Source of the DNA: a virus
DNA length: 64,000 nucleotides
Virus record (IMG/VR): IMGVR_UViG_3300032073_000003
Coordinates: 1 to 64,000 of that record
Reading direction: 5' to 3' (one strand)
Below are positions 19,601 to 59,338 of this stretch, piece by piece. A program made the position numbers and the translations under genes. Positions within the stretch are counted from its first letter, which is position 1. Each line of letters begins with the position of its first letter. The notes beneath the pieces are model-generated. The model was given only the letters and a program-made list of their open reading frames with translations. It had not been told where the DNA came from and did not search any database.

Positions 19601-20873
19601 ATGTATATGAAATATCAAAAAACTTAAGTCCCGCATCATCTTCACCTAAACTAATTTTAGAATTACCTGGATAAACACCACCTATTGTTTCTCGACCTAC
19701 TGGTATTACCTCTTCTAAAAGAAAAGATGATCTTCCTTCAGTATTACCTTTAACTAAAATATCTTGTATAGCTTTTGAAGGCATTGTTAACCTATCTACA
19801 CTTAAGTCATCTGTAATTTTATTTTTACTAAATGCTGATGAAGCATCAATAACTTTTTCTTTATTGTTTAAAATACTTTGTAGTTCATTAACATTTTGAG
19901 TAAAATAAGATTCTAACTTAGGATCTTTTACTAGCCCTTTACCTTTCCAAGATGATCTAAAAGGTGGACGTGGAATTTTACTTAAACCATATCCTACTGC
20001 AGTATTTATAGGTAATAATTTACCAAAAGCAGATGCTCCTTGCATTTGAGGAACTTTATTATACCAATCATAACCTTTTTTAATACCTGTAGTAATATCT
20101 TTAATAAATTTACCATCTTTAGCTTTAGGTAGTTCTTGTGACATTTCTCCTTCGTTTAACCAATTTTGATTTTCCCAACCATTACTTACAGGACTATAAT
20201 CAGGAAGATAATCACTTATCATACTTGATTGTGGATTTACAAATTGAACACCAGCTTGTTGCTGAACTAAATCTTCTATAGAAAAAGGTTTTTGATTACT
20301 ATTATTAGATTGATTTAAATTTGGATCTTGTTGTGCATATCCTCCTTCATTAAAATAACCACCGTATTTAAAAGCTTGTTGCTGCATTTGTTGTTCATCA
20401 AAACTATCTTCTGTAGCATAATCACTAATATGAGAATTGTCTTCTTCAGATTCAGACATCATAAGCTGTTCTTCTTCTTGTTGTTCAGCCATATCTTCAT
20501 CATTAGATCCTGTTGAATCTGACTGTTCTGAAGTTTCTCCCTGTTGTTGTTCTTCTCCAACTGGTTCAGGATTTATATATCCTTCTTCCATAAGTTGTTT
20601 AATTGCAGATTGTATGACCAACTGAGACATATTTCCGTCAGCTCCATAGTTATTAATTAATTCATAATATACTATATCAGCAGGAGTATCTGCTATTAAA
20701 CTGTTATATGCACTAGTATACATTTGCTGAAACATTTGCTGGTCTTGACCTGAGTTACCTACAGACATTCCTTTTTGTGCTTTTGTTAAAAACTGTTTTG
20801 TTTTATTAAGATAACCTGGAGTTTCTCCTTCTTTTGCTTTTCTTATCCTTACTGTTTTTTTCATAAAATACAT
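16698..20873 (-). CDS. 1391-aa putative cargo protein, low-complexity, many xxGG motifs and one ELPKAKDG-delimited module
   Basis: ORF track; alternative start 20864 (MKKTVRIRK). Motifs KYGG, KQGG, QEGG, MELGG, MEDGG, MEQGG. C-terminal QEVFMTQDQLNNYLASGGQVEYLY tag. Confidence 0.75.
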   Translation of the reverse strand: MYFMKKTVRIRKAKEGETPGYLNKTKQFLTKAQKGMSVGNSGQDQQMFQQMYTSAYNSLIADTPADIVYYELINNYGADGNMSQLVIQSAIKQLMEEGYINPEPVGEEQQQGETSEQSDSTGSNDEDMAEQQEEEQLMMSESEEDNSHISDYATEDSFDEQQMQQQAFKYGGYFNEGGYAQQDPNLNQSNNSNQKPFSIEDLVQQQAGVQFVNPQSSMISDYLPDYSPVSNGWENQNWLNEGEMSQELPKAKDGKFIKDITTGIKKGYDWYNKVPQMQGASAFGKLLPINTAVGYGLSKIPRPPFRSSWKGKGLVKDPKLESYFTQNVNELQSILNNKEKVIDASSAFSKNKITDDLSVDRLTMPSKAIQDILVKGNTEGRSSFLLEEVIPVGRETIGGVYPGNSKISLGEDDAGLKFFDISYTYKPGDQGPYFGIPSNASKTTFRNRFYYEPNEETKAFNVYDENLNLIENGTNTMFEVTRPLVPSLYKSIMGSTRGDVKFLPLNRNPLKSLISRKEFTATPPKTFAEISTGNKIGRVGESLYTGQWLPQMFGYNPIRTRGKNIIDVSQDIYNYGAKEKSGMPLDDVNTAEDIKNYTDYFRRKGRNFNIGAGLIAGGLGYYMTRPSEEDVIIPGFKRELQIGDGKNIIDPSNYIPFIDSTPNVTPISDMYNLDWDTLPEPKKQGGTISKKKFTKNLLAFYKNGGANTNDSNAFGRGDRTDTNIGDVQKIKDGFISNLKNSSNKATTSDIYDLAKGNPEIMQTLMSNGKQEDLANPTEMQYSQEGGGLQNNGNQMEEIIGQVQGALESGAQPEEVMMQLLQGGLEPEAVAQIFVQLGMPEEQVVQVMQQIMSQGQQQPQGMGPSEEEMMAMQQQQMQAPAMMELGGFTDMDAENPLTKFISGGMESEYYEPYDMPQADDGMQVNKQCGYGQMWNERLQRCVPMVQYNTNYIQGPGTSRGVLGALLPWNRRRNNRYMQMSNFTGNTAGPVSRVEFKNNWLGRPKEGTVYFGGGNNNLSEDVIKNTRYDEGIYQNLMNSVNGVKDDIGQGRKNRRYSKYLGEGNFGEDYWEDPNRMAGADINAIGNEGVTNPYENAYAYNTDSMRDMVVGKKSQKQLNKSYKSEDRQRFQDARQAARQTRRAERRDDRAAAKIIKNQEYGGYIPTYRNGGVSEFTGFGVGENTMINPFQTSVEDNMYNPNDSYPTYEIAGNIGENADLLFPDENGGQGSADFNMKKFPRDYEANVNLFNAGARGVANIFENAGSNKREYNNTLDLVAPENNYASANFQNRGNYGSTTGQNLGMFRYDQMGQDNYGMASTMAKYGRYMEDGGYMQNENVPPGYHMMPNGMIMPDNQMEQGGTNSPYYDEGQEVFMTQDQLNNYLASGGQVEYLY

Positions 20874-20879
20874 TGTATA

Positions 20880-20894
20880 TATTAATATACTAAA
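20880..20894 (-). promoter_or_regulatory. Conserved intergenic motif TTTAGTATATT (putative phage late promoter core)
   Basis: Same core at 49878-49892, 54289-54303 and 62014-62024, with variants at 39532-39542 and 43177-43187; always a short distance upstream of a start codon. Confidence 0.6.
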
Positions 20895-20923
20895 TTTAAA
20901 TTTAATCTATAAACTTATATAGT

Positions 20924-23900
20924 TTAAACATCTTCTATTATCCAACCTTCTTTGGCATATTGGTCTATTTCTTTTTGACTTAAGTTTACCACCATACCAC
21001 CATCTTTTTCTTTTTTAATTGGTTTATCAAAAAGACCTTTAAGTTTTATATAGTTTTCTTTTATAGGATTATTTACATACTCGTCTAAATATTCTTGAGG
21101 TATATTTATACCTGCTAATCCCAAACCTCCTGCTATTCCTGCAGCATAACCATATCTTTCAAGTAAACTTTGTAAATTACCTCCCATTGTTGCAGGGTCA
21201 AATTTATCCCCTCTAAGTTTGTCCATATTAACATCAACATATTTATTAGAAAAAGGAAGTCTTCTATGTATTTTTACACCAGGATCCATTATAGAATTAT
21301 ATGGAACAGTTCCTGTAAAATTATTACCTTCTCTAACTAACACCCCATTTCTATTCAGTTCTCTTCCATTAGTTATATTTATATTAGTACCTGGTACATT
21401 TGTATCAAAACTTGCTGCAAAAACTCCTGGATATTTTTCATTAATATTACCCATCTCAGCCCAATTACCTTCACCTTGTACTTGTTTTTTACCCATTCTA
21501 AATTTTCCACCATGAGCAGGACTTATTATTCCTGTATTTTTAACATAATCTAAATTATCTCCAAATTTTCTATATGCTACACCTGGATTTATATTTTTTG
21601 AAGAAGGTAGTGTTTTTCCATAAAAAGGTATAAAATTTAAAGGACTTCCTGTAAATGGACCAAATTCTTCTACTGAAAGTCCAAATGTTAATGGGTTTAT
21701 CATTACAGGAGCTATAGTTTTTGCTATTGCATTTGCAGTACCTAAAGTACTTGTATTTATATCTCTAAGTATATTTTTTGTAAAATTTGGAGTATACTTA
21801 TAAACATCTTTTCCTAAGTTAAATTTAGAATAATTTTTACCTCCAGTTTTAATTAATTTAGCTAATGATGATAACCCTCTTTGAGCTTCTGGTAATTCAC
21901 CACCTTCTTGATTCATAATCAATGGGTCTCTTAAGTTAATATCTTTACCTGAAAATTTGTCCCATTTATCAAAATGATGATGCTTTTTTCTAGGAAAATT
22001 TTTTATCTTATCTTGTAGACTTAACATGCCAGGTTTATTTGGATCAATTCCCATTTTTATATAACGGTTATATTGATTAACTAATTCATTTAATCTATAG
22101 TTATATTTTAATATAGGAGAACTATCATCTAAGACACCTAGTAAATTAGCACCAATTTCATTTCTTGTAAGAGGTTTAAATTTTCCATAATATCCTTGAG
22201 GTCCTAATCTACGATTTTCTTCCAAGTTATTAACAGCATACTTAAGAACTTTATCTGACCCAAACTTTTTTATCATTCCTTTTCTAATTAAATCCCGCAT
22301 TTCTCCTGAAGGTGCTGAATTATATTGATGAAAAAGTCTTTTATGCTCATCATTCATTGGTGAAGGAAAATCTATAGAACGAGCAAATTTAGGTCCTTTA
22401 ACATCAGCTGCAAGTAACTTAGCTTTTTGCATTTCAATTGCTCCAGGACTCATAGGTTTAAAATCAAAATCATCAATACCATGACCTTTAAATTTAGTAA
22501 GAGAATTTGTGAGCAAAGGTCCTTTTTCTAGATTAAATGTTTTAGCTAACATTTTATCAAGTTCATCTAAATTTTTAATACCTTTTTGATTAATGAGATT
22601 TTGTATTGTTTCTTGTGCAGGACCAAATTCAAATCCTCCTATATCTGACATCTGATTTCTTTTTGTCCATTTAAGATCATCTGCTATTTTTATAGTTCTA
22701 GGTTTTTTTTCTATTTGTGAAATATTTAGTTCATCTTTTGGATTAAGCTTAAGCATAGCTTTATCAACTAAAGCTTTCTTTTCTATATCTGAAAGCTCAT
22801 TATATCGTCTACCTCCAAATTCAGGTATAGGTTTTCCTTTAATAAAATTTTTAAGATAATTTTTTGATTTCCCCAAATATTTTATGAACTTTCCCCATTG
22901 AGCTTCTGGTAATTCACCACCAAATTTATAACCAAGAGGATCTATTTTTTTCCTAAAATCTATTCCAAGACCTGTTTTATCAAATATTTTATCTCTTGTT
23001 TTAGGGAAATAAGATTTACTAAATCCTTTTTCTAAAGATGCGGGATTACCATAAAAGAATCCTTTACCTGTAGATGGATTTGCAGCTGTAAAAGAATAGT
23101 TAATCTTTGGATTAATAGTTGCTAATTTTCCATGTTTAAGACTTTGTCCAACACCTTTAGCAATTGGTAAAGCATTTTTAACATATTTTCCTACAATAGG
23201 TGCGGCAAAAGAAGCACTAAGATAGTCACCTTTAGCTAAATGACCATCAGGTTTAAATGATTCATATGCATAAAAAGGTGCTGCATATTTCCATTCATTA
23301 GCTAACCAATTTTTTCCATACTTACCTAAGCCTCCTTGTCCTCCGCTATATAATGTAGCATATGCAGCAGCAGCATCCATACCTAATTCTGAAGTTCTAT
23401 CTAAACTAAAATCTCTAGATAGTTCATCTCCCCAATGTAAAGGATTAAGTTTATTATATAAACTTGCCATTATAGCCGGTGCATTTCCAGAAAGATCTTT
23501 ATCTCTAAGTCCTTCATTCATTATAATTTCACCTTGTTCATTTTCAAATCCTGAATTTCTTGCTTGTTCTTGTAACTCATTAAAACTTTGAGTTTGACCT
23601 GGTTTCCACATAGTTGCATTTGGTCTTAAGTCCATTGCATAACCAATAGCTTGACCTGGATTAGTTATAACATCCCAAGCTTTAGTTCCAAATCCAATTT
23701 CTTCACCCGCAGGACCTGCTTTAAGTGTATTACGATCAAGATCATATCTATGTTGTCTTAAGTTATATAGATTATTTATTTTATCCATATAAGTTACTGG
23801 AAGAGTTTCTAAATTCTTTGCAATTTTTTTATCTACAAAATCTTCTAAACTTTTTCCTTTTTCTATTATTCCAGTTTGTTTTTTTGCAACTTCTTTTTGT

Positions 23901-25417
23901 TTTAATAAATCTTCATATTCTTTTTCAAGAGATTCTTTTCTAGGTGCATAAAAATCAAAAACACTTTTACCATCTTTAGTAACATTACTATTTAATATGC
24001 TAATTTTATCTTCTAAAGATAAGGCTGGATTACTATAAGCTTGTTCTATTAATTCTCTTTCTTGTCTTGGAATGTCCATATTATCCCTCATATAACTATT
24101 TTCTGCTATATCTTCTCCTGTTAACTTTTGTAAATCTTCAGCAAATTTTCTTTCTACATTTTCATTTCTTACTCCTTCAATACCAGGTAAATTACTATAA
24201 ATTCTATTATAATCCATATTAGAAAATGCATCATAACCTACATTTTGAGCATTTTCTTGTCCTTCACGATATGTTTTTTCACCAAGCTTTCTTTGGTTAA
24301 TAGCTGCATCTAATGCCATTCCATCTGACATTTCATTCTCTTTAGATGGTGTGTAAATTCCTTCTAATACTCTATTTAATTTTTCTCTTCTTATTTTCTT
24401 TTCTGTAGGAGTCTTACCTTGATCTACCCACCAATCTTGATATTTCTTATCTGCATCAACAGCAATTTTCCATATTTCTTTACCATCTATATTTTCAGTT
24501 CCACTAACTCTTCCAAAATCAAAATCTTTTTCTCTATCCCATTTTACTCTATCTTCTTCTATTTTATCATAACTACTTAATATTTCATTTGTATTATAAT
24601 CATAGTCATCTTCAATAGCTTTTGATACTAACTCCTTAAAATGTGATTGCATGTTTTCAGTAACACCATCTTTTGGTGATAACTCATTAATCACTTGTTC
24701 AGGAGTTTTATTCTCTTCTAGTGCAGTACTATATATTTTATTCAGCATTGAATTATCATAGGATTCTTCTCTATAATCTATGAGTTCACCCATTTGTTCT
24801 CGTACCTGTTTACCATCTAATCCCCACTTATTTACAAAATCTCGATCTTTAAAACCATTATTAATTATTTTATGTTGCAATATTTCATATGGCCAAATTG
24901 AATATGCACCATTATTATTTTTTTGTATATAATAGTCACCTTCATTTTTTAGTTCATCAACTTGTTCTTGTGTTAATGTCTTATTTTCAAAAAGAGGTTT
25001 AATTTTATCTGATTTTTTAGACTTAGTAAAATCAGTATAATAATTATTTCTACGTTCTTCTTCTTGTTGTAGCCATTCTTGATATGCTTGTTGTTCTATG
25101 TCATTTAATCTAAGATTTGTCAACCTTCTCATCCTCCCATAAGTATCAAATTTGTCAAAGTTTGGATACGGATTTTCATCATTATCCACTCCAAATATAT
25201 TATTACGAAATGCATCAGCAAAGTTATACTCTAGATTACCACCTTTATAATCAGTCTTTCCATAGTTTGGATCTAAGTCTTTTTGTTTAGATCCAAACTT
25301 CTGCCTCTTCATTTTTAATTTCTTCTGCATTTTTAATCTATTTCTATCATCTATAGACTCACCTGTTTGGGCTTTAGGTAATAATTGAGGGATGCTTGTA
25401 ATTTTATATTTTTTCAT
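20924..25417 (-). CDS. 1497-aa putative cargo polyprotein with GGELPEAQxG-delimited modules
   Basis: LLPKAQTG at N-terminus, KFGGELPEAQWG and QEGGELPEAQRG internally, C-terminal KDGGMVVNLSQKEIDQYAKEGWIIEDV. Confidence 0.8.
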   Translation of the reverse strand: MKKYKITSIPQLLPKAQTGESIDDRNRLKMQKKLKMKRQKFGSKQKDLDPNYGKTDYKGGNLEYNFADAFRNNIFGVDNDENPYPNFDKFDTYGRMRRLTNLRLNDIEQQAYQEWLQQEEERRNNYYTDFTKSKKSDKIKPLFENKTLTQEQVDELKNEGDYYIQKNNNGAYSIWPYEILQHKIINNGFKDRDFVNKWGLDGKQVREQMGELIDYREESYDNSMLNKIYSTALEENKTPEQVINELSPKDGVTENMQSHFKELVSKAIEDDYDYNTNEILSSYDKIEEDRVKWDREKDFDFGRVSGTENIDGKEIWKIAVDADKKYQDWWVDQGKTPTEKKIRREKLNRVLEGIYTPSKENEMSDGMALDAAINQRKLGEKTYREGQENAQNVGYDAFSNMDYNRIYSNLPGIEGVRNENVERKFAEDLQKLTGEDIAENSYMRDNMDIPRQERELIEQAYSNPALSLEDKISILNSNVTKDGKSVFDFYAPRKESLEKEYEDLLKQKEVAKKQTGIIEKGKSLEDFVDKKIAKNLETLPVTYMDKINNLYNLRQHRYDLDRNTLKAGPAGEEIGFGTKAWDVITNPGQAIGYAMDLRPNATMWKPGQTQSFNELQEQARNSGFENEQGEIIMNEGLRDKDLSGNAPAIMASLYNKLNPLHWGDELSRDFSLDRTSELGMDAAAAYATLYSGGQGGLGKYGKNWLANEWKYAAPFYAYESFKPDGHLAKGDYLSASFAAPIVGKYVKNALPIAKGVGQSLKHGKLATINPKINYSFTAANPSTGKGFFYGNPASLEKGFSKSYFPKTRDKIFDKTGLGIDFRKKIDPLGYKFGGELPEAQWGKFIKYLGKSKNYLKNFIKGKPIPEFGGRRYNELSDIEKKALVDKAMLKLNPKDELNISQIEKKPRTIKIADDLKWTKRNQMSDIGGFEFGPAQETIQNLINQKGIKNLDELDKMLAKTFNLEKGPLLTNSLTKFKGHGIDDFDFKPMSPGAIEMQKAKLLAADVKGPKFARSIDFPSPMNDEHKRLFHQYNSAPSGEMRDLIRKGMIKKFGSDKVLKYAVNNLEENRRLGPQGYYGKFKPLTRNEIGANLLGVLDDSSPILKYNYRLNELVNQYNRYIKMGIDPNKPGMLSLQDKIKNFPRKKHHHFDKWDKFSGKDINLRDPLIMNQEGGELPEAQRGLSSLAKLIKTGGKNYSKFNLGKDVYKYTPNFTKNILRDINTSTLGTANAIAKTIAPVMINPLTFGLSVEEFGPFTGSPLNFIPFYGKTLPSSKNINPGVAYRKFGDNLDYVKNTGIISPAHGGKFRMGKKQVQGEGNWAEMGNINEKYPGVFAASFDTNVPGTNINITNGRELNRNGVLVREGNNFTGTVPYNSIMDPGVKIHRRLPFSNKYVDVNMDKLRGDKFDPATMGGNLQSLLERYGYAAGIAGGLGLAGINIPQEYLDEYVNNPIKENYIKLKGLFDKPIKKEKDGGMVVNLSQKEIDQYAKEGWIIEDV
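21881..22921. repeat. Identical 24-bp direct repeat (TTGAGCTTCTGGTAATTCACCACC) at 21881-21904 and 22898-22921
   Basis: Both copies read directly; each encodes GGELPEAQ and they flank a 1017-bp module. Confidence 0.9.
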
Positions 25418-25419
25418 AA

Positions 25420-28400
25420 CTATATTTCTTCAAATGTATAACCTTGTGCTTTTAATCTTTTCATAGTAGCTTCATCTACTATATCTCCTAACTCTACACT
25501 ACCACCTTCTTTCCATCTTCCATCTCCCCATTTTTCCATATTTTTGTCTTTTACACCAGTTCCTGGAACTAACATTTCTCTAATTTCTCTTACTAATTCT
25601 TTTGATCCTAATTTATTATTAGTCACGTCAGGTAAAAAGACATCTGGATTAATGTTAAAAACACTATTTCTTTCTCCGGGTTTTCCTATATAAGATAAGT
25701 CTACTAAGCCAAGTTTATCTCCAACTGATCCAATATTATCTAGACCCATATAATCAAGTCCTACACCTAAGTCATTAAGTTCTTTAACAGTATTATATAT
25801 AACATCTGAATCTACTGATAGACCACTAGAATAATCTAATTTAGGCATAAATTGTACAAATCTTTTACTATTTTGCAAATTATCTTCTCCAACCCTAAAA
25901 GCTTCTGTAGGAAAGGCTGCTTCAGCATAAGAACTATTAAATTTTTTACCGGCATTTATAAGATTTTGCATATCATTCTCATCTCCAAAAAACTTTCCAA
26001 ATTTTATATATTCTTTATCATTTAATAAATTATTAAATAGTCTCCCTTGACCACCCGCTAATTGATCTCCATGTTTACCTCGTGCTTGTGTAATAGGTAA
26101 CCCTGAATAATCTAATCTAAATTTACTATATTCATCTTGAATATTAAATAACTTTTTTTGCACCTCATTTTGTGCTTTTACAAGTTCATCAATTTTAGCT
26201 TCTTTAGCAGATTCACTTAATCTTTTATCATATGTTACTCTATCTATTGCCTTATCAAATTGTTTTACTTTATTTGCAAATTTAGCATGATCATATCTAC
26301 TAGTTAATTGTTTTCCAAAATCTCTTAATCCAGATATTTCAGCAGCTCCTCTTCCTAACGAATAATAATTGTTATTCCGCATCATGTTCCAAGCAGCTTC
26401 TGTACGTAATAATTCTTCAGGAGGTGTGAATAAAAATTTTTTACTAGTAGTTATAGAATTAGGTGGGTTTAAATATTTCATCCATTTACCATATTTTGCT
26501 TTAGGTAAATCTCCTCCTTGTTCATATTTACCTTTCCATCCTGTATCAAAATCTAACTTATTTTGTTTTATATATTTGACAAAGTCTAGTTTTTGTTGAG
26601 GATTTAAATTAACCAAATCAGCAAAAGGATAAGTTTCATCAATATCAAACATTTTACTACCTTTAAGACCTACCACAGAACCATCAGATTTGGACGCACT
26701 AAAATGTAAAGGCATATCATAATTGTTACTAGGCATATAGTCATGTACATAATAACCATCCTTTACTCCACCATCAGTTTTCCAAGTCTTATTTGGTTTA
26801 TAATATTTACTGAACCAATCATTATAACTTCCTTCACTGAAGTCTCTTGGTGACTTCATTTTAAATTGATAATTACCATACCGACCGGACATATCTGGAT
26901 AATGTGTTGCAAATAAAGCATCAACATTATGCATAAGATGCATACCCGATCTATAACCATATGTATCCATTGGAACATGAGCAACTTGATATTTTGCTAT
27001 TGATAAAGGATCATTAAAATCAACACCTGCATTTTTCATGTTTTCAAATTCTGAAATACTATTAGGATAATTAGGTACTGACATATCAAATTTATGTCTT
27101 GTATGTTCCTGCATACCTTTACCATCATGAGGAACTTTACCAGTTACAGCTCTATATCTAGTTGCATTGTGATCTAATGCTAATTTAGTTAATTCTTCAG
27201 TTCTTTTAGTTGAACGTGCAGCATAATTTAAATCATTAAAATTCTCACCAATAAGTCCTTCTTTTTGTAGGTTTTTAATAAATTGTCTTCTTCGTAAGAA
27301 TCCTTGTGCTTCTTTAATTTGCTCTTTAGTTATTTTTTTTATATAGTCTGTAGATTTTGGAATTATACTATTTTCAAGTTTTAATGCATAAGGTAATACG
27401 CTGTTACCTGTAACTATTTTATTATAAGTATCAACTGGTTTTATATATTTACTTAAAATTTTACTTCCCTGTTTTATAACCCTACCATCCCATGCCTTTG
27501 GTAATTCTCCTCCTAATTTCTTTTCTTCCAATGTACTTCCCGCAGCTCCTGCTGCTCCTAATCCTAAACCTACTGTAGGTAATCTATTAAGAAGCCATGA
27601 TAAGTTTTGATACATTTCAGGAGATTCTTCCATAAAATCTAATATTCTAGTATTGCTTAAATAGGATTTACTATTATTAGATTTTACTACCCCCATAGGA
27701 TTTCTTTTAAAAAACGTTGAAGCTACTTGTAATTTTTCTGGAGTAATGTTTTCATACCTATGTTTAATTAATCCTTTTAATAACATAGCTTCTCTAAGTT
27801 CATTTAAATAAGCAGAAGGTTCTTTACCTGATTTTTTAAAATAGTCATATGCCTTTTGTTGATTTTCATTAAGTTCTTTTTTTGGTCTAATCATTTTAAG
27901 AGCATCTCTATCAATTTGAAGTTTCCTACCTCTTTGTAAACCATGACCTCTTATTTCATGAGCAAGTATAGGTGTATTAAATGGAGAACTATAATCTACC
28001 CCCATTCTAATAAAACCAGGTAAAGCTTTTTCACCAAGTTGAGTCTTATTTAAATTAAAAAAATCATAATTATTAATATCACCAGCCCATGCATCCAAAT
28101 ATATATTATTAGGGTTTGTATAAGAAGCGTTAGAATATAAATATTTACTATTAAAAAAATCTTTTTCTGGTAATCTATTTTGGTCTAAAAACTTACTTGC
28201 TACAGAAGCACTATTCCTTACATTACCCATTAACTCTAATTCCTGCAATCTTGCTTTATAATTTAATTCAGCTTGTTTGTCAATAAAATTTTTAGGATAT
28301 CCAATATGTTCTAAGTGTTCAGATTCTTGTTTAAGCAATCTTTTTTTTCCTTCAGGACTTTTTAATTCATATAACATGTCACCTACATAATTCTGAATAG

Positions 28401-31400
28401 GTTCTATTCCTGTAGCTAAATGTTTAAGCATCTCTTGTTGTAATAGCGGATCTTTTAAAACATTTGTTTTGAAAAAAGGATGGGAATTTACTACTACATC
28501 ATCAAATTTAGTAGCAAATGGTAATGTTTTTTTAAGAGCTTTAGATATGGTACCTACTTGTGCTTTAGGTAGTTGTCCTCCTTTTTTAAGATCAAAATGA
28601 AGAGGATTAGTTTGTGTTAATATAAAAGGTTTGCCAAATTTGTTAAGTAACCTAGGAGCTAAATCTTTAAAATAAGAATCATCTTGAGCTCCTATTTCAC
28701 TTTTTCCTTCTATCCATTTATCGACATAATCTTTTGGATGAAATCCCCAAACATCTCTTGTTGTAAAATCAAACTTTTTAGGAGTTATTCTTCTAACAAA
28801 TGTCATATGACCCCCTATGTCATCTATAGGTTCAATTGGATTTCCCCATAAACCAAAGTTAGGAAGATATCCATCTTTAAACGAACTTTCAAATGGAAGT
28901 ATTTCTCCAAATTCATCAAATAGTGTATTATATGCTCCTATAAGTCCATCAGGATTTTTTGACTTAACAGCTTGTTCTATAATTTCATCTTTCCATCTAG
29001 TAAACTCATCATATGTTCTATGTGATTTTATTTGAGGATCTGCTACATCCATCCGACCAAAAAGTTTTTTACCACTAAGAGGTTCTTTATTAGCGAAATT
29101 AGAAAGTAATTCATAAGACTTTAAAGGACCGTGATAATCAGTATATTTTTTTAATGCATCTTTACTTTCTAGTTCTGATAACCAACGTGATTCTTTAAAC
29201 TTTGAATCATCTCCAAAGTAAAGATCTACTAAACTTCTATCTTGATGACCTGGAAACCCTGTTTCTTTTCCAGAATAAGTTTCTAATAATTTCTTTTTTG
29301 AATCAAGATCTTCTAAAAATTTAGACACATTATAATGTTCATTTCCTGAACTTAAACCCATAGCATGCTTTGCATACTTCTTCATAATCTCTGGAGCAAG
29401 AATAGCTGAAATATCTATACCCTTATCTATAATACCTCTTGACAATCCTTGTATAATCTTATTACTACTACCTGCTCCTGTTATTAAAGGTTTAGCAAGA
29501 CTAATTAAACCCAATTTAGCTTTAGGCAATTCTTCTACTACATATCCACCCTTTACATATTTATCTATTTCTTCAGGAGTTAATTCAAGTTGAAAACCAC
29601 CTTCTTGTTTATCTTGTAAATGTTCTGGCAATTGATCTTTCCAAGAACCTCTTCCAAATGCTAATGCAGCTTCTTTGTCTTCACCAAAATCATATACCTC
29701 TCCTCTTTTTAAAGCTTCTTGATATATTGGCCACCATCCATTTTCTCCAGATACTTCCTTCCAGTTTTCTTGATCATCAGCATAAGGTTTAGAATCTTGA
29801 AATAAAGTTGGAAATGCTACCCAACCTCTACCATCAACGTATTCTGCAGCCATTAAATGAGATGATACACTTGTAGGAAACTGAAGTCCTGAAGGAGTCC
29901 ATGCTTTATAATCATAATTATCTCTTACACCTCTTCTTTGTTTTACACTATGACCATCTTGAGCTTTAGGAACATCTTTACGTGTAAAATCAGAAGATCT
30001 TTCCATATTTGGAATTTTACTATCATCATAATTAGATAATAATTCTTCTCCAGGTTGTATGTCTCTTATAGCTATTAAAGATATGTGATCTCCATTATCT
30101 ACTTCAGTAACATTAGGTTCTTCGCTATGATTATATCCACCAATCTGTTTAGAAGGAAATGGTGCTTGATACATTTCACCATTTTTTTCAAATTCTTTTC
30201 TTATATGAGATACTCCAATTGATTGTCCTTTAGATATAGGTTCTTTAGAAAACACACCGGTTCCATGAATTGGAGATTCTTTTTCTTCTACTTGTATATA
30301 TACAGGAGTATCTACACCATGTTCTTTTGAATTAACAAAAGTACCTTCAATATTATCTTCTCTTTGAGCTTTAGGTAACTCTTCTTCTACTATATACCCT
30401 CCTTTTACATATTCTTCTATCTCAGCATCAGTAAGTTCTTTTGTTTCATATTCTCCTCCAAATTTATTTTCAGGTAAACCTAGACCAGCTACCCCTAATA
30501 AAGGAATTAAAGCTTTATAAATATTAGGATTAGTCATATCAAACATTCCGTTATTTCCTCTTAGAGATTTAGCATAATTACCAGGCACTTGATTTGCAAT
30601 AGTCACATCTCCAAAAATACCATCTAATACATCATCTATCTGAATGTTTGATAAACCTTGTTTTTCCATATAGGTTGCTAAATCATCAGTTGAAGTAAAC
30701 TCACCTAATTTATCACGAACTGTTTGCAACTCTTTTTCAGTAGTATAGTTGTTACTCTTTATGTTTTGCAATTCATCTTCTAAATCTGCTACACGTTTTT
30801 GATATCTTTCTATTGCCTTTTTTGAATTTGATTTCTTAGCTCTAGTTAGCATATCTTTATAAGCTTTAATATTATACTCCATTTTAGATATTACATCACC
30901 AGGTCCTGTTAAAGGTATTTCTGTCCAATGTTGTTTATTTGCATTAATCTTTAAAGAATTTGAAGATTTAGGTATAGCTAATTCATATAATCCATTAAAA
31001 CGAAGATCTTCAGGTGTATTAGAATTAAAGTAAAAATCATCTGTATAATTTAAAGACCCGTTATAATTCCTTGCTAACTCTTTGTTTCCTGTAAATACTC
31101 CAGTATAACCCTTATCTTTTTTATCTATCAATGTAGGGTTATATTTAGTAGTACCTCTATAAACTGTACTATAACCTTCAGGAAAAGCTTTCTTAAAGTC
31201 TTTACTATTAACTTGCACAAATTGCTCTGGTAATCCAGGAGAACCATCTGGTAATGTAAACGGTGATCCGTCTGCATTTTTCATCCATGTACTATTAGTT
31301 TTAGCAAATTTTTCTATATCTGCATACTCATCCATTAAAGCTTTATTCTTAGGAATATCTTTATTCCAATTACTCCAGTTTATTTCTGATTTAAACTTAT

Positions 31401-31695
31401 TAGATTTATTTATAATTTTACTAGGTACTGTAAAATTTGGTTTAAGATATTTTAAAAATTTACTTAAACCCGTTTGCGCTTTAGGTAGCTCTCCTCCTTG
31501 TTTTAACATAGGATATTCATCCACATAAGATGCTCCTGGAAAAGTATAGCTTTGACCAGGTTGCATCAATACAGGTTCTCCTACATCAGGTACTGCCCAT
31601 ACAGGATAGTCAACTCCTTCCATAGTAATTTGATTACCAGGAATTCTAGTGTTCTTACCGGGGTGAGCCCATTGCCCTCTAGGATCTTCTATCAT
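25420..31695 (-). CDS. 2091-aa modular (polyvalent) cargo polyprotein: ART-PolyVal-like, SET, two unknown, zincin-like, ART-like and kinase-like modules
   Basis: Seven PKA(Q/K/W) delimiters. SET motifs IHGTGVF / YNHSEEPN / GEELLSNY. ART-like VYRGT...KSLRGNNGMFDMTNPNI. Zincin-like LAHEIRGH...EPSAY. Kinase-like AGGQGRLF / LDYMGLDN / LVDL. Confidence 0.8.
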   Translation of the reverse strand: MIEDPRGQWAHPGKNTRIPGNQITMEGVDYPVWAVPDVGEPVLMQPGQSYTFPGASYVDEYPMLKQGGELPKAQTGLSKFLKYLKPNFTVPSKIINKSNKFKSEINWSNWNKDIPKNKALMDEYADIEKFAKTNSTWMKNADGSPFTLPDGSPGLPEQFVQVNSKDFKKAFPEGYSTVYRGTTKYNPTLIDKKDKGYTGVFTGNKELARNYNGSLNYTDDFYFNSNTPEDLRFNGLYELAIPKSSNSLKINANKQHWTEIPLTGPGDVISKMEYNIKAYKDMLTRAKKSNSKKAIERYQKRVADLEDELQNIKSNNYTTEKELQTVRDKLGEFTSTDDLATYMEKQGLSNIQIDDVLDGIFGDVTIANQVPGNYAKSLRGNNGMFDMTNPNIYKALIPLLGVAGLGLPENKFGGEYETKELTDAEIEEYVKGGYIVEEELPKAQREDNIEGTFVNSKEHGVDTPVYIQVEEKESPIHGTGVFSKEPISKGQSIGVSHIRKEFEKNGEMYQAPFPSKQIGGYNHSEEPNVTEVDNGDHISLIAIRDIQPGEELLSNYDDSKIPNMERSSDFTRKDVPKAQDGHSVKQRRGVRDNYDYKAWTPSGLQFPTSVSSHLMAAEYVDGRGWVAFPTLFQDSKPYADDQENWKEVSGENGWWPIYQEALKRGEVYDFGEDKEAALAFGRGSWKDQLPEHLQDKQEGGFQLELTPEEIDKYVKGGYVVEELPKAKLGLISLAKPLITGAGSSNKIIQGLSRGIIDKGIDISAILAPEIMKKYAKHAMGLSSGNEHYNVSKFLEDLDSKKKLLETYSGKETGFPGHQDRSLVDLYFGDDSKFKESRWLSELESKDALKKYTDYHGPLKSYELLSNFANKEPLSGKKLFGRMDVADPQIKSHRTYDEFTRWKDEIIEQAVKSKNPDGLIGAYNTLFDEFGEILPFESSFKDGYLPNFGLWGNPIEPIDDIGGHMTFVRRITPKKFDFTTRDVWGFHPKDYVDKWIEGKSEIGAQDDSYFKDLAPRLLNKFGKPFILTQTNPLHFDLKKGGQLPKAQVGTISKALKKTLPFATKFDDVVVNSHPFFKTNVLKDPLLQQEMLKHLATGIEPIQNYVGDMLYELKSPEGKKRLLKQESEHLEHIGYPKNFIDKQAELNYKARLQELELMGNVRNSASVASKFLDQNRLPEKDFFNSKYLYSNASYTNPNNIYLDAWAGDINNYDFFNLNKTQLGEKALPGFIRMGVDYSSPFNTPILAHEIRGHGLQRGRKLQIDRDALKMIRPKKELNENQQKAYDYFKKSGKEPSAYLNELREAMLLKGLIKHRYENITPEKLQVASTFFKRNPMGVVKSNNSKSYLSNTRILDFMEESPEMYQNLSWLLNRLPTVGLGLGAAGAAGSTLEEKKLGGELPKAWDGRVIKQGSKILSKYIKPVDTYNKIVTGNSVLPYALKLENSIIPKSTDYIKKITKEQIKEAQGFLRRRQFIKNLQKEGLIGENFNDLNYAARSTKRTEELTKLALDHNATRYRAVTGKVPHDGKGMQEHTRHKFDMSVPNYPNSISEFENMKNAGVDFNDPLSIAKYQVAHVPMDTYGYRSGMHLMHNVDALFATHYPDMSGRYGNYQFKMKSPRDFSEGSYNDWFSKYYKPNKTWKTDGGVKDGYYVHDYMPSNNYDMPLHFSASKSDGSVVGLKGSKMFDIDETYPFADLVNLNPQQKLDFVKYIKQNKLDFDTGWKGKYEQGGDLPKAKYGKWMKYLNPPNSITTSKKFLFTPPEELLRTEAAWNMMRNNNYYSLGRGAAEISGLRDFGKQLTSRYDHAKFANKVKQFDKAIDRVTYDKRLSESAKEAKIDELVKAQNEVQKKLFNIQDEYSKFRLDYSGLPITQARGKHGDQLAGGQGRLFNNLLNDKEYIKFGKFFGDENDMQNLINAGKKFNSSYAEAAFPTEAFRVGEDNLQNSKRFVQFMPKLDYSSGLSVDSDVIYNTVKELNDLGVGLDYMGLDNIGSVGDKLGLVDLSYIGKPGERNSVFNINPDVFLPDVTNNKLGSKELVREIREMLVPGTGVKDKNMEKWGDGRWKEGGSVELGDIVDEATMKRLKAQGYTFEEI

Positions 31696-51339: not shown

Positions 51340-52956
51340 TTAGAATGAACCTCCCGTTACTGGGTTTCTCATTACAATTTTAAGAACCTTAGTTGGATCT
51401 TTTACCCATATTGCAGGCATTGTTTGAGACATCATTACTCTGTATCCATTAAATTGTCCTGAAGACTGGAATCCTTGAGAACGTCCCATATAATCCATTG
51501 TACCATTTTGATACCACCATTTTAATTGATTATCCCAAGATAGTTTCAATAAGAAAATGTTATCATTAGTATTATCAGTAATATCAAAGATAATAAATGA
51601 ATAAGATGATAATGGGAATCCGTCAATAATAGGATTTTCAATATCATTTGTATGAACATTATCAAATGCTGGGTTTAATACAAACTTAACATTAGCTAAA
51701 AAAGGAATTACATATGAAGTGTAAGAGAATCCAAAGTTTAAATCCATTCCTTTACCAGTAATAGCACCGATATCAGCAGCTTGGATTACAAGACCTGAAG
51801 CAACAGCTTCTCTCTTAATAGCTTCATTTACCATTCTCATTCCTCCCATACCAGTTTGTACAATTAATGATCTGTTTGGATCTGGACCTTGAAATTCAAC
51901 TTTACCATTAAAGAAGTTATAAATTTCTCCACGGAATAATTCAAGAGTAAAGTTATTTTTGTTATATACTCTTTTAAATGAATTGTCTAATTGTCTCCAA
52001 AGACCAACTGATAATCTCATATCATCTGGACCATCTTGACGTAGTCTACCACCTTGACCCCACATTAAGTAAGATTCAATATCAGATGCAACTTTTGACA
52101 AGTGAGCTGATTCCATTGCAGTTAAAAAAGTTCTAGAAAGATCTCCATTATCAAAAGCTTTCTTTACTTTATCTTTACCCATTACCTTAACCATATCTTC
52201 TAAAGAAGAAACAGAAGGATCCATAGTTTCACCAAAATTTCTCCAGATTTCAGTTACAGGAACTGTACCATCTGCATTCATTCCTCCTTTGATCATAAGA
52301 TCAGCTCTAGAAGAAACAGAATAATGAACATGAGCTTCAGCACCACCTACATAGTTGTAGAATTCACGGAAACCAGTTCTTGTTGTAATATCAGAGAATC
52401 TTTCTCCATATTCACCTCTAGCAGAACCTTTACGGAATATTTTTGTACCGTTTTCAAGAAATTTAGCATCTAAAAATCTAAAGTTATCATTGTTTACTAG
52501 TTGAACAGTATAGATAAATCCATCTCCTACTGGAAGGATATCTTCATCTGTTACGTACATTTCAACTCCGTTATATTTGTCATAAGTGATAATATCACCA
52601 TGTCCAAACTCACGTCTGCTTAATTTAATACGAAATGTTGAACCATCTGTACCAAGTACAGCTGTAGGATCTTCAATATTTTCAATAATATAAGGAAGAT
52701 CATTGGTAGTTGGTGTTTGCCATTTATACTCTCCACGAGCATTATCTACCATAATTACGTTCTTTCCACCAAAGCTAGACATTTGATAAAGAGGCATTTC
52801 TACTTTCTGAGCCATTGCCCATAAGTCTACTGGACCTAAGTCCATTGGTTCTGCATCTTTTAACATGTTAACCAAGTGATAAGAATCTACGTGTGAACTT
52901 GCATTGTAAGCTGTATCCCGTAGAAAGATACCATTGTTTAAAACTGGAGTTGCCAT
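51340..52956 (-). CDS. Major capsid protein (HK97 fold, crAss-type)
   Basis: 538 aa after portal and scaffold; EYKWQ E-loop region, ESYLMWGQG and GLWRQL motifs; strong terminator downstream. Confidence 0.85.
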   Translation of the reverse strand: MATPVLNNGIFLRDTAYNASSHVDSYHLVNMLKDAEPMDLGPVDLWAMAQKVEMPLYQMSSFGGKNVIMVDNARGEYKWQTPTTNDLPYIIENIEDPTAVLGTDGSTFRIKLSRREFGHGDIITYDKYNGVEMYVTDEDILPVGDGFIYTVQLVNNDNFRFLDAKFLENGTKIFRKGSARGEYGERFSDITTRTGFREFYNYVGGAEAHVHYSVSSRADLMIKGGMNADGTVPVTEIWRNFGETMDPSVSSLEDMVKVMGKDKVKKAFDNGDLSRTFLTAMESAHLSKVASDIESYLMWGQGGRLRQDGPDDMRLSVGLWRQLDNSFKRVYNKNNFTLELFRGEIYNFFNGKVEFQGPDPNRSLIVQTGMGGMRMVNEAIKREAVASGLVIQAADIGAITGKGMDLNFGFSYTSYVIPFLANVKFVLNPAFDNVHTNDIENPIIDGFPLSSYSFIIFDITDNTNDNIFLLKLSWDNQLKWWYQNGTMDYMGRSQGFQSSGQFNGYRVMMSQTMPAIWVKDPTKVLKIVMRNPVTGGSF

Positions 52957-57130: not shown

Positions 57131-59338
57131 TTATTTAATATTTTTAAATGCAGATCTTTTAGAAGACCTTCTTTTTATACTTCCTTTACCACCCATATGT
57201 CTAAAAGGACTCTTAGTTAATTTAAACAAATTTTCTGACTTTTGCAAGTTTTTAGCAGCCTCGTCTCTAACTGTTCTTTTGTTATACCCTCTATTAGAGT
57301 GTTGAATTTTCATAAAACCTACTAAAGCTGCAAATGATACTAATCTATCAGTGTTAACTCCTTCTGCATACTCTCTCATTTCTTTGATTAACATTGGATC
57401 AGGTATTCTTTCAATTCCATAAGTAGTTTTTACTACAGTACCATCAGGTTTAGTTTCTTGATCTAATTCTTCTTTAGTATATTCTATAGCATAACTAAGA
57501 AGGTGTCCTTTAAATAGTATTCCTGTATTTTTCCATCCATACTCCTGGAAAACGTTAGCATTAGAACCAAGATCTTTTAAAAACATAATCTGACCTTTTG
57601 GAACAAGATATCTTTGTTTTTTTCTATGTATCATGTATTGTATAAATAATGATATATTATTTTCAACTAATGCCCATGCATTATACCATTCTATAATTAA
57701 TTCTAATCGTTTATGTGTTTGATTTATATCATCATACCTACCACACCAAGCTGCAACAATCTTATCTTGTTCTATATATGTTTCAGTTTCTGTACCATTT
57801 ACATTAGTTACTTCAACAGGTGCTTTCATTATGTAAATAGAACATAAAGATTCTGAAGTAGTTGTTTTTCCTTCTGATACAGGGTCAATAGAAGCATAAT
57901 AAGTTTTAGCAAATACTGGATTTTTTATAGGTCTTTCCCATACTACAAGACACCCTGTTTTATCTTCTGTTTTTTTCTTAATTGGAAATTCTGTTATAGG
58001 ACGTTTATTACTTTTTTTTACGGCAGGTTTTCCATCAGCATCAGCAAAAATATCTAAAAACTCATAACCATATTCTTTTTCTTCTATTCTTCTTTCTTGT
58101 GCAGTAAGTAAATGAGGAGGGAATACAGATACAGTTCTATGTGCAAATGCTTCTTTAATATTTCTTGGATGTTGAGATATTCTTAATTGATAATCTTCTG
58201 GTGCTAATTCTTTTTTCCAATCTTCAAATTGTTTGTTTAATGCTTCAAATGCATCTTTAACTTTAGAATTACCATGATCATCAATATGAGGAGGCATTGA
58301 CCATTGTTCTGGAATAAAAAGTCCTGACAAACCTTCAGTACCTTTATCATCTATTAAATCTGTTTCTATTGCATATATGTCAGATGCTATAGGATTTTGA
58401 ATCATTTCTTTTAACGGATTACATTGAGACAAATCACCTACTGATCCAGCAGCTATAAACATACCAGTTGTAGTAAGACCCGATCTCATTGCAGGTCTCA
58501 TATACTCATATGTTTTATTCATTTTAGGTGCAATACCTGCTTCTTCATGAAAGAAGTATTTTACTGGACCACCTACACCATTTGTTGGATCTTTCTCAAA
58601 TGACATACCTTGTATAGTTCCTTTAAGACCAACTTCAGTTTTACGATCACCCTTTCTAACTTCAATTTTTTGTTGCCACATCATAACTTTATCTGGTGAC
58701 ATTGGTCTATACCAAGCAGTATGTTCATTTAAAAATGCAGAATATTCTTGTAAAAATTTCCAAGATCCTTTTTCATTTATATAATCTTTTAAACTAGCTC
58801 CTATTTTTAATGTAACACCTGGTTCAAACCATTGCTGATTTATTAATTTAGCCATATGATAATAGGATGATGCTATCTGACGTTTCTTTAATATAGCAAC
58901 ATGTTTATAATTTAATTCTGCTAATAATTCATATAATGCCATATGATATTGGGCATCTCTAATATCAGCAAAACCAAATTTTTGTATTTCTTTATTAAAA
59001 ATTGGTAAAAAATTTAACCACATGTAATATTCTCTTGCAAGAAACCAAATGTTATCTTTATCTTTTATAATAACACCTTTTCTACATTTAGCTTTTTCAT
59101 TGTCCCAATATTTTATAAAGTCACTGGATTTAAAGGGAGCTGTACAATATACTCCATCAGTTTCAAATTTTTTAGATTGTTCAATAAATATGTTACTTGT
59201 AAGTTCGTTGAATAAATATTCTCCAGGTTGTTTAAATATATTTTTGATAAACTCAGCGAAGTCTTCTCTGGATTCAAAACTGGTAACTGTCCATTTTTCG
59301 TTTTCATAAGTTGGTATGTTTTGATAAATTTCACTCAT
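57131..59338 (-). CDS. terL: Terminase large subunit
   Basis: Walker A-like KKRQIASSY, Walker B FFHEEAG, coupling motif AAGSVGD, RNase H-like SIDPVSEG / VENN / NTDRLVS. Confidence 0.92.
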   Translation of the reverse strand: MSEIYQNIPTYENEKWTVTSFESREDFAEFIKNIFKQPGEYLFNELTSNIFIEQSKKFETDGVYCTAPFKSSDFIKYWDNEKAKCRKGVIIKDKDNIWFLAREYYMWLNFLPIFNKEIQKFGFADIRDAQYHMALYELLAELNYKHVAILKKRQIASSYYHMAKLINQQWFEPGVTLKIGASLKDYINEKGSWKFLQEYSAFLNEHTAWYRPMSPDKVMMWQQKIEVRKGDRKTEVGLKGTIQGMSFEKDPTNGVGGPVKYFFHEEAGIAPKMNKTYEYMRPAMRSGLTTTGMFIAAGSVGDLSQCNPLKEMIQNPIASDIYAIETDLIDDKGTEGLSGLFIPEQWSMPPHIDDHGNSKVKDAFEALNKQFEDWKKELAPEDYQLRISQHPRNIKEAFAHRTVSVFPPHLLTAQERRIEEKEYGYEFLDIFADADGKPAVKKSNKRPITEFPIKKKTEDKTGCLVVWERPIKNPVFAKTYYASIDPVSEGKTTTSESLCSIYIMKAPVEVTNVNGTETETYIEQDKIVAAWCGRYDDINQTHKRLELIIEWYNAWALVENNISLFIQYMIHRKKQRYLVPKGQIMFLKDLGSNANVFQEYGWKNTGILFKGHLLSYAIEYTKEELDQETKPDGTVVKTTYGIERIPDPMLIKEMREYAEGVNTDRLVSFAALVGFMKIQHSNRGYNKRTVRDEAAKNLQKSENLFKLTKSPFRHMGGKGSIKRRSSKRSAFKNIK

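Follow-up and report, generated by a model that had tools for sequence, protein, structure and literature searches.

The SET module of P0001

The window analysed here is the first 64,000 bases (1-64000) of the 119,466-bp IMG/VR record IMGVR_UViG_3300032073_000003, a virus genome with direct terminal repeats that is estimated to be complete. On its minus strand, at 25420..31695, lies an uninterrupted open reading frame (ORF) for a giant protein of 2091 amino acids, P0001, immediately downstream of the gene for a muzzle protein homologue. The multi-module build of P0001 was apparent from the ORF list and its translation, from a census of linker peptides and from the shuffling of its modules in relatives. 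Seven linkers of the form [LV]PKA[QKW], at residues 70, 440, 575, 723, 1042, 1398 and 1730, divide the protein into eight modules, the third of which is a SET cassette (residues 445-574; 29974..30363, minus strand). It is bounded by the linker LPKAQ upstream (residues 440-444; 30364..30378, minus strand) and the linker VPKAQ downstream (residues 575-579; 29959..29973, minus strand).

A sequence-only reading of the window had placed a SET-domain lysine methyltransferase, inside a virion polyprotein, at 30022-30290. The motif peptides that it quoted are real. They are encoded by the minus strand and fall within residues 476-556 of P0001: IHGTGVF (residues 476-482, 30250-30270), NHSEEPN (residues 522-528, 30112-30132) and GEELLSNY (residues 549-556, 30028-30051). 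A plus-strand reading of 30022-30290 was ruled out, as its translation is full of stops. The key residues are G478 and G480 of the GxG motif, N522, H523, S524, P527 and N528 of NHSxxPN, E551, and Y556 at the catalytic position.

The Pfam search that the same reading had proposed gave a clear result. The SET model PF00856 (cut-off 22.4 bits) scored 37.9 bits (E 2.6e-9) on the whole of P0001 and 45.3 bits (E 1.3e-11) on the isolated module. The model was matched end to end by residues 478-556 (30028..30264, minus strand), with GxG, NHSxxPN and EELxxxY inside the match, and a six-frame search of the whole genome found no SET besides this one (minus strand, 30028-30264; 40.2 bits). By these scores the match is far beyond chance.

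Comparison with proteins of known structure gave the same assignment. A phmmer search of PDB sequences returned SMYD3, MLL1, SET8, EZH2 and the chlorovirus vSET, and a family profile built from the module and 69 relatives matched the MLL1 SET (6e-19), vSET (2.6e-14) and LegAS4 (2.8e-11). SPIHGxGxF, NHSxxPN and GEELxxxY align with the MLL1 motifs, and Y556 corresponds to the last Y of MLL1 GEELTYDY. Among the PHROGs, the SET piece matched only phrog_28741, a family of unknown function. Cysteine clusters of the pre-SET or post-SET type are absent from the module, and its SET-I insert is strongly shortened relative to that of MLL1. It is thus a minimal SET that resembles vSET in build and size.

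Predicted fold and conservation of the active site

The AlphaFold2 (AF2) model of the SET module had a mean predicted local distance difference test (pLDDT) score of 80.9. The core exceeded 90, and both ends, which correspond to the linkers, fell below 50. This suggests that the linkers flanking the SET are disordered. A Foldseek comparison of the model with the PDB gave 221 matches at E<=1e-3. The top matches were all SET or PR domains (SET8, EZH2, vSET, MLL1), with probability 1.0 and template modelling (TM) scores of 0.4-0.63. The best size-normalised structural match was the 119-residue vSET (3kma; TMt 0.63).

The active site is strongly conserved in the family. In an alignment of 29 SET-bearing giants, all of which match Pfam SET, residues S474, G478, G480, F482, G494, H497, N522, H523, N528, I546, E551 and Y556 are invariant, at an overall identity of 18-35% that rises to 74% for the close relative P0002. 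Across 90 giant-embedded SETs, G480, N522 and E551 occur in 90/90, and H523 and Y556 in 85/90. The S-adenosylmethionine (SAM)-binding motifs (GxG, NHSxxPN) are invariant or nearly so in these 90 and in alignments A1 and A3. Judged from this conservation, the active site is under purifying selection.

Two further positions bear on the chemistry and the boundary of the module. The position two before the catalytic Tyr is one that we take to be the Phe/Tyr switch of DIM-5 and MLL1. The residue there is small, S554 in P0001 and S/T/A/G in the giants, and the idea that a small residue at S554 leaves room for multiple methylation is speculative. In the C-terminal flank of the SET, the M564 position is Leu in 79/90 giants and F570 is kept in 75/90, and this flank is mostly missing from free-standing SETs. 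The conserved C-flank may replace a post-SET element. Taken together, the SET match, the predicted fold and the invariant or near-invariant active-site residues argue for a catalytically competent SET protein-lysine methyltransferase. The sequence-only assignment to the SET family is supported.

Relatives and spread of the cassette

A word-indexed search of 5.8 billion proteins yielded 58 relatives of P0001, all metagenomic and 1150-3300 residues long. BLAST mapping revealed that they share single modules with P0001 in varying order and position, with breakpoints at the linkers. Some cassettes stand as separate genes in metagenomic relatives. The SET was present in 9 of the 58 whole-protein relatives, and in 8 of the 42 that have linkers. 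Other relatives carry ART-PolyVal, Pkinase, SLT, LysM, YkuD, amidase, chitinase/lysozyme or peptidoglycan-binding modules.

When 1.84 billion representative sequences were searched with the SET module using HMMER, 382 matches were found. Forty-nine of these, each representing a cluster at 50% identity, had E<=1e-10; nearly all were 900-2200 residues long, with the SET usually at about residues 40-160 after a short leader. The weaker matches were free-standing SETs of 100-130 residues. The earlier remark that SET domains are rare in phage structural regions was therefore overstated, since this SET is present in at least 49 clusters at 50% identity. In a tree of 178 SET domains, the query fell into a set of 47 rows with 96% support. 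Of these rows 40 were giants, six were truncated fragments encoded on tiny contigs, and the remaining one was a protein of intermediate length. Some giants (P0097-P0100) carry tandem SET modules, at about residues 7-100 and 114-232.

The arrangement of genes around the SET recurs as well. In three IMG/VR relatives (L002-L004), genes of 196, 221 and 330 residues are followed by a muzzle homologue and then by the SET protein, and the SET is the first module of the post-muzzle gene. A locus search of viral contigs with the single SET module returned nothing, and a search of GTDB species genomes with alignment A2 returned no relative. Judging from its distribution, the SET is a cassette that recurs and moves within one family of giant proteins.

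Linkers, terminal tag and cassette architecture

The linkers of P0001 usually take the form GG-[EDQ]-LPKA-[QK]-x-G. Each of the next two giants has a single copy of the motif, whereas the plus-strand frames have none. In the wider family, the form (GG)x[LVI]PKA[QK]xG was counted 118 times in 63 related giants (window 16698-31695 and relatives P0002-P0223). The seven copies in P0001 use different synonymous codons (CTA/TTA/TTG/GTT, CCT/CCA, GCG/GCT/GCA), which indicates that the linkers are conserved at the peptide level. A role as DNA-level recombination sites was considered and rejected on these codon differences.

A second recurrent element is found at the protein ends. P0001 terminates in a C-terminal tag, ...ELGDIVDEATMKRLKAQGYTFEEI (25423..25509, minus strand). 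The tag is about 25 residues long, follows the pattern ...ELGDxVDEATMxxLKxxGYTFExI, and ends 59/142 related giants. A related peptide, LTxxEIxxYVKGGYxVEE, precedes two internal LPKA linkers of P0001 and stands at the very end of genes in relatives; the linker upstream of the SET is preceded by the tag-like peptide LTDAEIEEYVKGGYIVEEE. Gene ends in relatives thus coincide with internal junctions of P0001. In one IMG/VR relative the SET gene is only 459 residues long, and the next gene ends in a tag that is internal to P0001. From these coincidences it appears that genes fuse and split exactly at the linker junctions.

The position of P0001 among the virion genes

The gene directly upstream of P0001 (31692..37148, minus strand) encodes 1818 amino acids and matches two muzzle-locus proteins, one of csAssE-Sib and one of phage phi4:1. 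The csAssE-Sib protein, WOZ57294 (E 2e-23), is annotated by its depositors as 'Muzzle protein'. The phi4:1 protein, gp042, is a virion protein proven by mass spectrometry (MS), and the gene is also homologous to structural proteins of Flavobacterium phages. Every large phi4:1 gene after gp042 is annotated as a virion protein from tandem mass spectrometry (MS/MS) proteomics. In ΦcrAss001, the genes after the muzzle gene encode cargo proteins that were detected in the virion by MS and are expected to enter the host by extrusion through the tail in a partly unfolded state (PMC10172136).

The N-terminal domain of P0001, module M0 (residues 1-75; 31471..31695, minus strand), ends in GG-ELPKAQ and is present in 45 relatives. 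It is homologous to residues 15-85 of phi4:1 gp040, a virion protein by MS/MS annotation. A hidden Markov model (HMM) of the M0 family matched this region with 45.3 bits (E 3.9e-13 at Z=1000), and the pairwise comparison of the P0001 M0 with gp040 gave E 7e-6. Both domains end at a GG boundary, and the stretch in common spans about 70 residues only. Modules of other family members match phi4:1 gp041. Given the cargo slot after the muzzle gene, the virion genes that follow gp042 in phi4:1 and the match of M0 to gp040, P0001 is most likely a virion cargo protein. The earlier placement of the SET inside a large protein of the virion module therefore finds support in its position after the muzzle gene and in an N-terminal domain common to an MS-proven virion protein.

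Other modules of P0001

Beside the SET, P0001 comprises a zincin-like module, a possible ADP-ribosyltransferase (ART)-like module and five uncharacterised modules. Module M1 (residues 76-445; 30361..31470, minus strand) is the most widespread cassette and was found in 29 relatives. The stretches of P0032 and P0053 that carry ART-PolyVal fall within the match of an HMM built from 30 M1 copies, and the protein atlas lead for M1 is ART-PolyVal (0.86). R180-G181 are conserved in M1. Pfam gave no match on M1 itself, and no ART-PolyVal match in six M1-bearing relatives. M1 is possibly a divergent ART-PolyVal-type ADP-ribosyltransferase, which we offer as a lead.

Module M5 (residues 1048-1403; 27487..28554, minus strand) is a predicted zincin-like metallopeptidase. 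It carries HEIRGH at residues 1246-1251 (27943-27960) and NELRE at residues 1298-1302. H1246, E1247, H1251 and E1299 are invariant in 17 M5 homologues of 33-86% identity, and the classical HEIGH occurs in one M5 relative. The AF2 model of M5 reached a pLDDT of 76.5, with disordered ends. In an exhaustive VIA-align comparison of this model the top ranks were all gluzincins, namely PepO, neprilysin, ECE-1, Zmp1, thermolysin and anthrax lethal factor; the best Z, 7.5 for PepO, is moderate and lies in a range flagged as possibly reflecting a common arrangement. From the motifs and the model, we regard M5 as zincin-like with moderate confidence, and as a candidate for the self-processing protease of the giant.

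The reading of P0001 as a polyprotein that undergoes proteolytic processing is plausible, because the predicted disordered linkers stand at gene boundaries of relatives and a zincin-like module is present. The N-terminal domain, linkers, tag and zincin module together suggest a general system for assembling and swapping injected enzymes.

M1 and M5 both end in glycine-rich hydrophobic stretches that precede linkers and are conserved in relatives: LIPLLGVAGLGL (residues 396-407, 30475-30510) in M1 and LPTVGLGLGAAGAAG (residues 1372-1386, 27538-27582) in M5. These could be membrane-active or glycine-zipper segments, with a weak transmembrane prediction. A search of P0001 for transmembrane helices like those of gp45 of ΦcrAss001 found none that was convincing, the best 19-residue Kyte-Doolittle mean being 1.11.

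Source genome and host

The phage has a G+C content of 29%. The genes for the terminase (57131..59338), portal, major capsid protein (MCP), tail and muzzle and the giant genes all lie on the minus strand and are tightly packed. The MCP gene (51340..52956, minus strand) belongs to phrog_11589. Its product matches gp32 of ΦcrAss001 (PDB 7qof) weakly (E 2.7e-4), as well as proteins of the Cellulophaga phages phi4:1 and phi17:2 and of a Leptolyngbya phage. By the matches of its MCP and muzzle genes, the 119-kb phage is a member of a distant crAss-like/Lightbulbvirus-like radiation. The host probably belongs to the Bacteroidota, because relatives infect Cellulophaga and Flavobacterium, the structural genes are crAss-like and the G+C content is low.

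About ten giant genes, of 1000-2600 residues each, form an unbroken minus-strand block that covers 1-37148 of the window and 104241-119466 of the genome, wrapping around the record ends. The block amounts to about 52 kb, or about 44% of the 119-kb genome, and most of its members have no Pfam or PHROG match. Pfam gave nothing usable on five neighbouring giants, and a crude pattern scan of the block did not show a DxDGD-type RNA-polymerase motif. At the corresponding place in the crAss-like relative csAssE-Sib (OR575929.1 73091-74725), a gene for a 'Ro sixty-related protein' and tRNA genes stand directly after the muzzle gene.

Proposed mechanism and alternatives

The composite reading that we favour, with a probability of roughly 55%, is that a minimal, competent SET is one cassette of a polyvalent cargo protein which is packed, injected and used to methylate a host protein. 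The giant protein would be made late and packed into the cargo space of capsid and tail. On infection it would be extruded into the cell before the DNA or together with it, and its own HExxxH zincin-like module, or some other protease, might cleave the disordered (GG)xLPKAQxG linkers. Whether released or still tethered, the SET would use host SAM to methylate lysines of host proteins at the very start of infection. We infer the packaging of P0001, its ejection and cleavage, the enzymatic activity and the host-protein target. With PBCV-1 vSET as a viral precedent, an injected methyltransferase acting on host proteins, as the sequence-only reading had it, is a reasonable inference by analogy.

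Several points weigh against this reading. To pass the tail, a SET that is already folded would need to unfold and then fold again. To our knowledge, bacteria have no histones. The virion assignment rests on synteny and one domain of about 70 residues. A phmmer search of all PDB chains with P0001, which covers, of the ΦcrAss001 cargo proteins, only the solved gp45 fragments and is insensitive to remote homology, gave SET matches only and none to gp45 or gp46. Regarding M5, to the moderate Z must be added that Foldseek found no match to its model in the PDB, and that Pfam at E<=10 on each of the seven non-SET modules gave only coiled-coil noise, with no M5 match. Many linker-bearing relatives have no M5, so that cleavage would often have to occur in trans, and instead of being cleaved the linkers might serve as flexible tethers or be fossil gene junctions. 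Finally, megablast of the gene and tblastn of whole P0001 and of residues 1-445 against 50,697 phage genomes gave no match; there, the SET piece matched only small free-standing SET genes of cyanophages P-RSM6 and P-SSM7 and of Stenotrophomonas phages.

These small genes lie outside structural modules, and together with the indirect nature of the virion evidence and the lack of detected similarity to ΦcrAss001 gp45/gp46 they lend some weight to a different course of events. P0001 might be a late cytoplasmic protein, packaged in part or not at all, whose SET acts late in the infected cell on host or phage proteins. We consider this improbable: the gene occupies the cargo slot right after the muzzle gene, the N-terminal domain is common with MS-proven phi4:1 gp040, and the peptidoglycan-degrading modules of relatives are sensible only for proteins that leave the virion at entry. 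It is similarly unlikely, in our estimate, that the SET acts on the cargo, capsid or tail proteins of the phage itself, during assembly or in the capsid, for example in protection from host proteases or lysine-directed tagging, or in packing. In favour of this, the gene shares its orientation with the late structural genes and lies tightly packed among them, the giants are lysine-rich with an invariant Lys in every linker (LPKAQ), and an enzyme enclosed with its substrates in a capsid needs no targeting. However, the SET occurs in only 9 of the 58 relatives and 8 of the 42 with linkers, so methylation of linkers or cargo is no general requirement. The SET also trades places with modules directed at the host (ART-PolyVal, kinase, cell-wall hydrolases), as an optional effector would, and SAM is unlikely to be available in a packed capsid.

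The alternative to which we assign the least weight is a catalytically silent SET that serves as a scaffold or binding domain, such as a lysine- or peptide-binding fold re-used for docking in the cargo protein. The strong shortening of SET-I relative to MLL1 and TM-scores to solved SETs of only 0.4-0.6 would fit such a role, and pseudo-enzymes are common in polymorphic effector proteins. But 90 divergent copies keep all the cofactor and catalytic residues (GxG, NH, E551, Y556) with few or no exceptions, which is not expected of a scaffold, and the 119-residue vSET (PDB 1n3j, 3kma) shows that a SET of such size can be active.

Within the injected-cargo reading, a more specific proposal can be made, to which we give clearly less credence than to the composite: crAss-like/Lightbulbvirus phages might inject a SET that is released from a multi-effector cargo protein through self-processing and that serves, within the first minute, to take over the cell or to counter its defences. 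Targets could then be, for example, a nucleoid-associated protein, RNA polymerase, a translation factor or a defence protein with a reactive lysine.

Comparison with known systems

The closest parallel is vSET (A612L), the H3K27 methyltransferase of PBCV-1 (PDB 1n3j, 3kma). PBCV-1 packages vSET in its virion, and vSET has been implicated in shutting down host transcription immediately after entry (PMC7019647). Like the SET of P0001, vSET is viral and minimal and has no pre-SET or post-SET zinc modules. However, vSET is free-standing, belongs to a eukaryotic virus and methylates histone H3, whereas the SET of P0001 is a linker-flanked internal cassette of a bacteriophage protein. The P0001-type SET also has a lineage-specific C-flank (M564 position, F570), unlike vSET.

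In its overall build P0001 recalls the polyvalent proteins, which Iyer et al. (2017, J Bacteriol, PMC5512222) present as giant proteins with several effector domains that occur in phages and conjugative elements, where their genes stand among those of the virion. They propose that a zincin-like metallopeptidase, one variant of which has HEXXXH, acts as a processing hub and cuts polyvalent proteins into units. As in the polyvalent proteins covered there, P0001 combines at least two unrelated effector domains, is encoded among late or virion genes and contains an HEXXXH motif, and its relatives show ART-PolyVal, kinase and lysozyme modules and a cassette-like variability. In contrast, SET has 0 occurrences in that survey of 131 domains (PMC5512222), and P0001 has one. 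The regular (GG)xLPKAQxG linker and the GYTFExI tag of P0001 are, so far as we could see, likewise not described for polyvalent proteins there (PMC5512222). None of the Pfam LPD, MPTase and MuF models of polyvalent proteins matches P0001.

The cargo proteins gp45 (C1) and gp46 (C2) of ΦcrAss001 (Bayfield et al. 2023, PMC10172136) resemble P0001 in being encoded directly downstream of the muzzle gene, in being large and poorly annotated, and in lying beside other giants. They have no known enzymatic modules and are proposed channel formers, whereas P0001 has no strong predicted transmembrane helix and no detected sequence similarity to them. The locus of gp040/gp041 in the Lightbulbvirus phi4:1, downstream of the muzzle homologue gp042, is syntenic with P0001. 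No SET, LPKAQ linker or GYTFExI tag was found in phi4:1 proteins. Delivery of SET lysine methyltransferases between organisms as effectors, as proposed for P0001, is a feature of Legionella LegAS4/RomA and Chlamydia NUE. These pass by type III/IV secretion into eukaryotes and methylate histones, whereas for the SET of P0001 the proposed vehicle is the virion and the proposed recipient is a bacterium.

Implications

SET enzymes, the virion-packaged vSET, polyvalent proteins and crassvirus cargo are already known. In the literature that could be searched, no paper was found that places a SET module inside phage cargo or polyvalent proteins; the sole mention was a passing annotation of a 'SET domain protein' in a Stenotrophomonas phage. 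In eukaryotes, the methylation of protein lysines by SET enzymes serves as a central regulatory mark. We know of almost no role for protein lysine methylation in conflicts between phages and bacteria.

The architecture of P0001 makes the idea testable, because the linker-delimited cassette can be expressed alone and the natural SET-less relatives can serve as controls. If injected and active, the module would represent a new class of effectors delivered by the virion, in a group of phages that is very abundant, and a compact lysine methyltransferase of 130 residues with a presumably bacterial substrate. If this is true, it would be the bacterial counterpart of the chlorovirus vSET that silences host chromatin, and lysine methylation would become a new currency of phage-host conflict.

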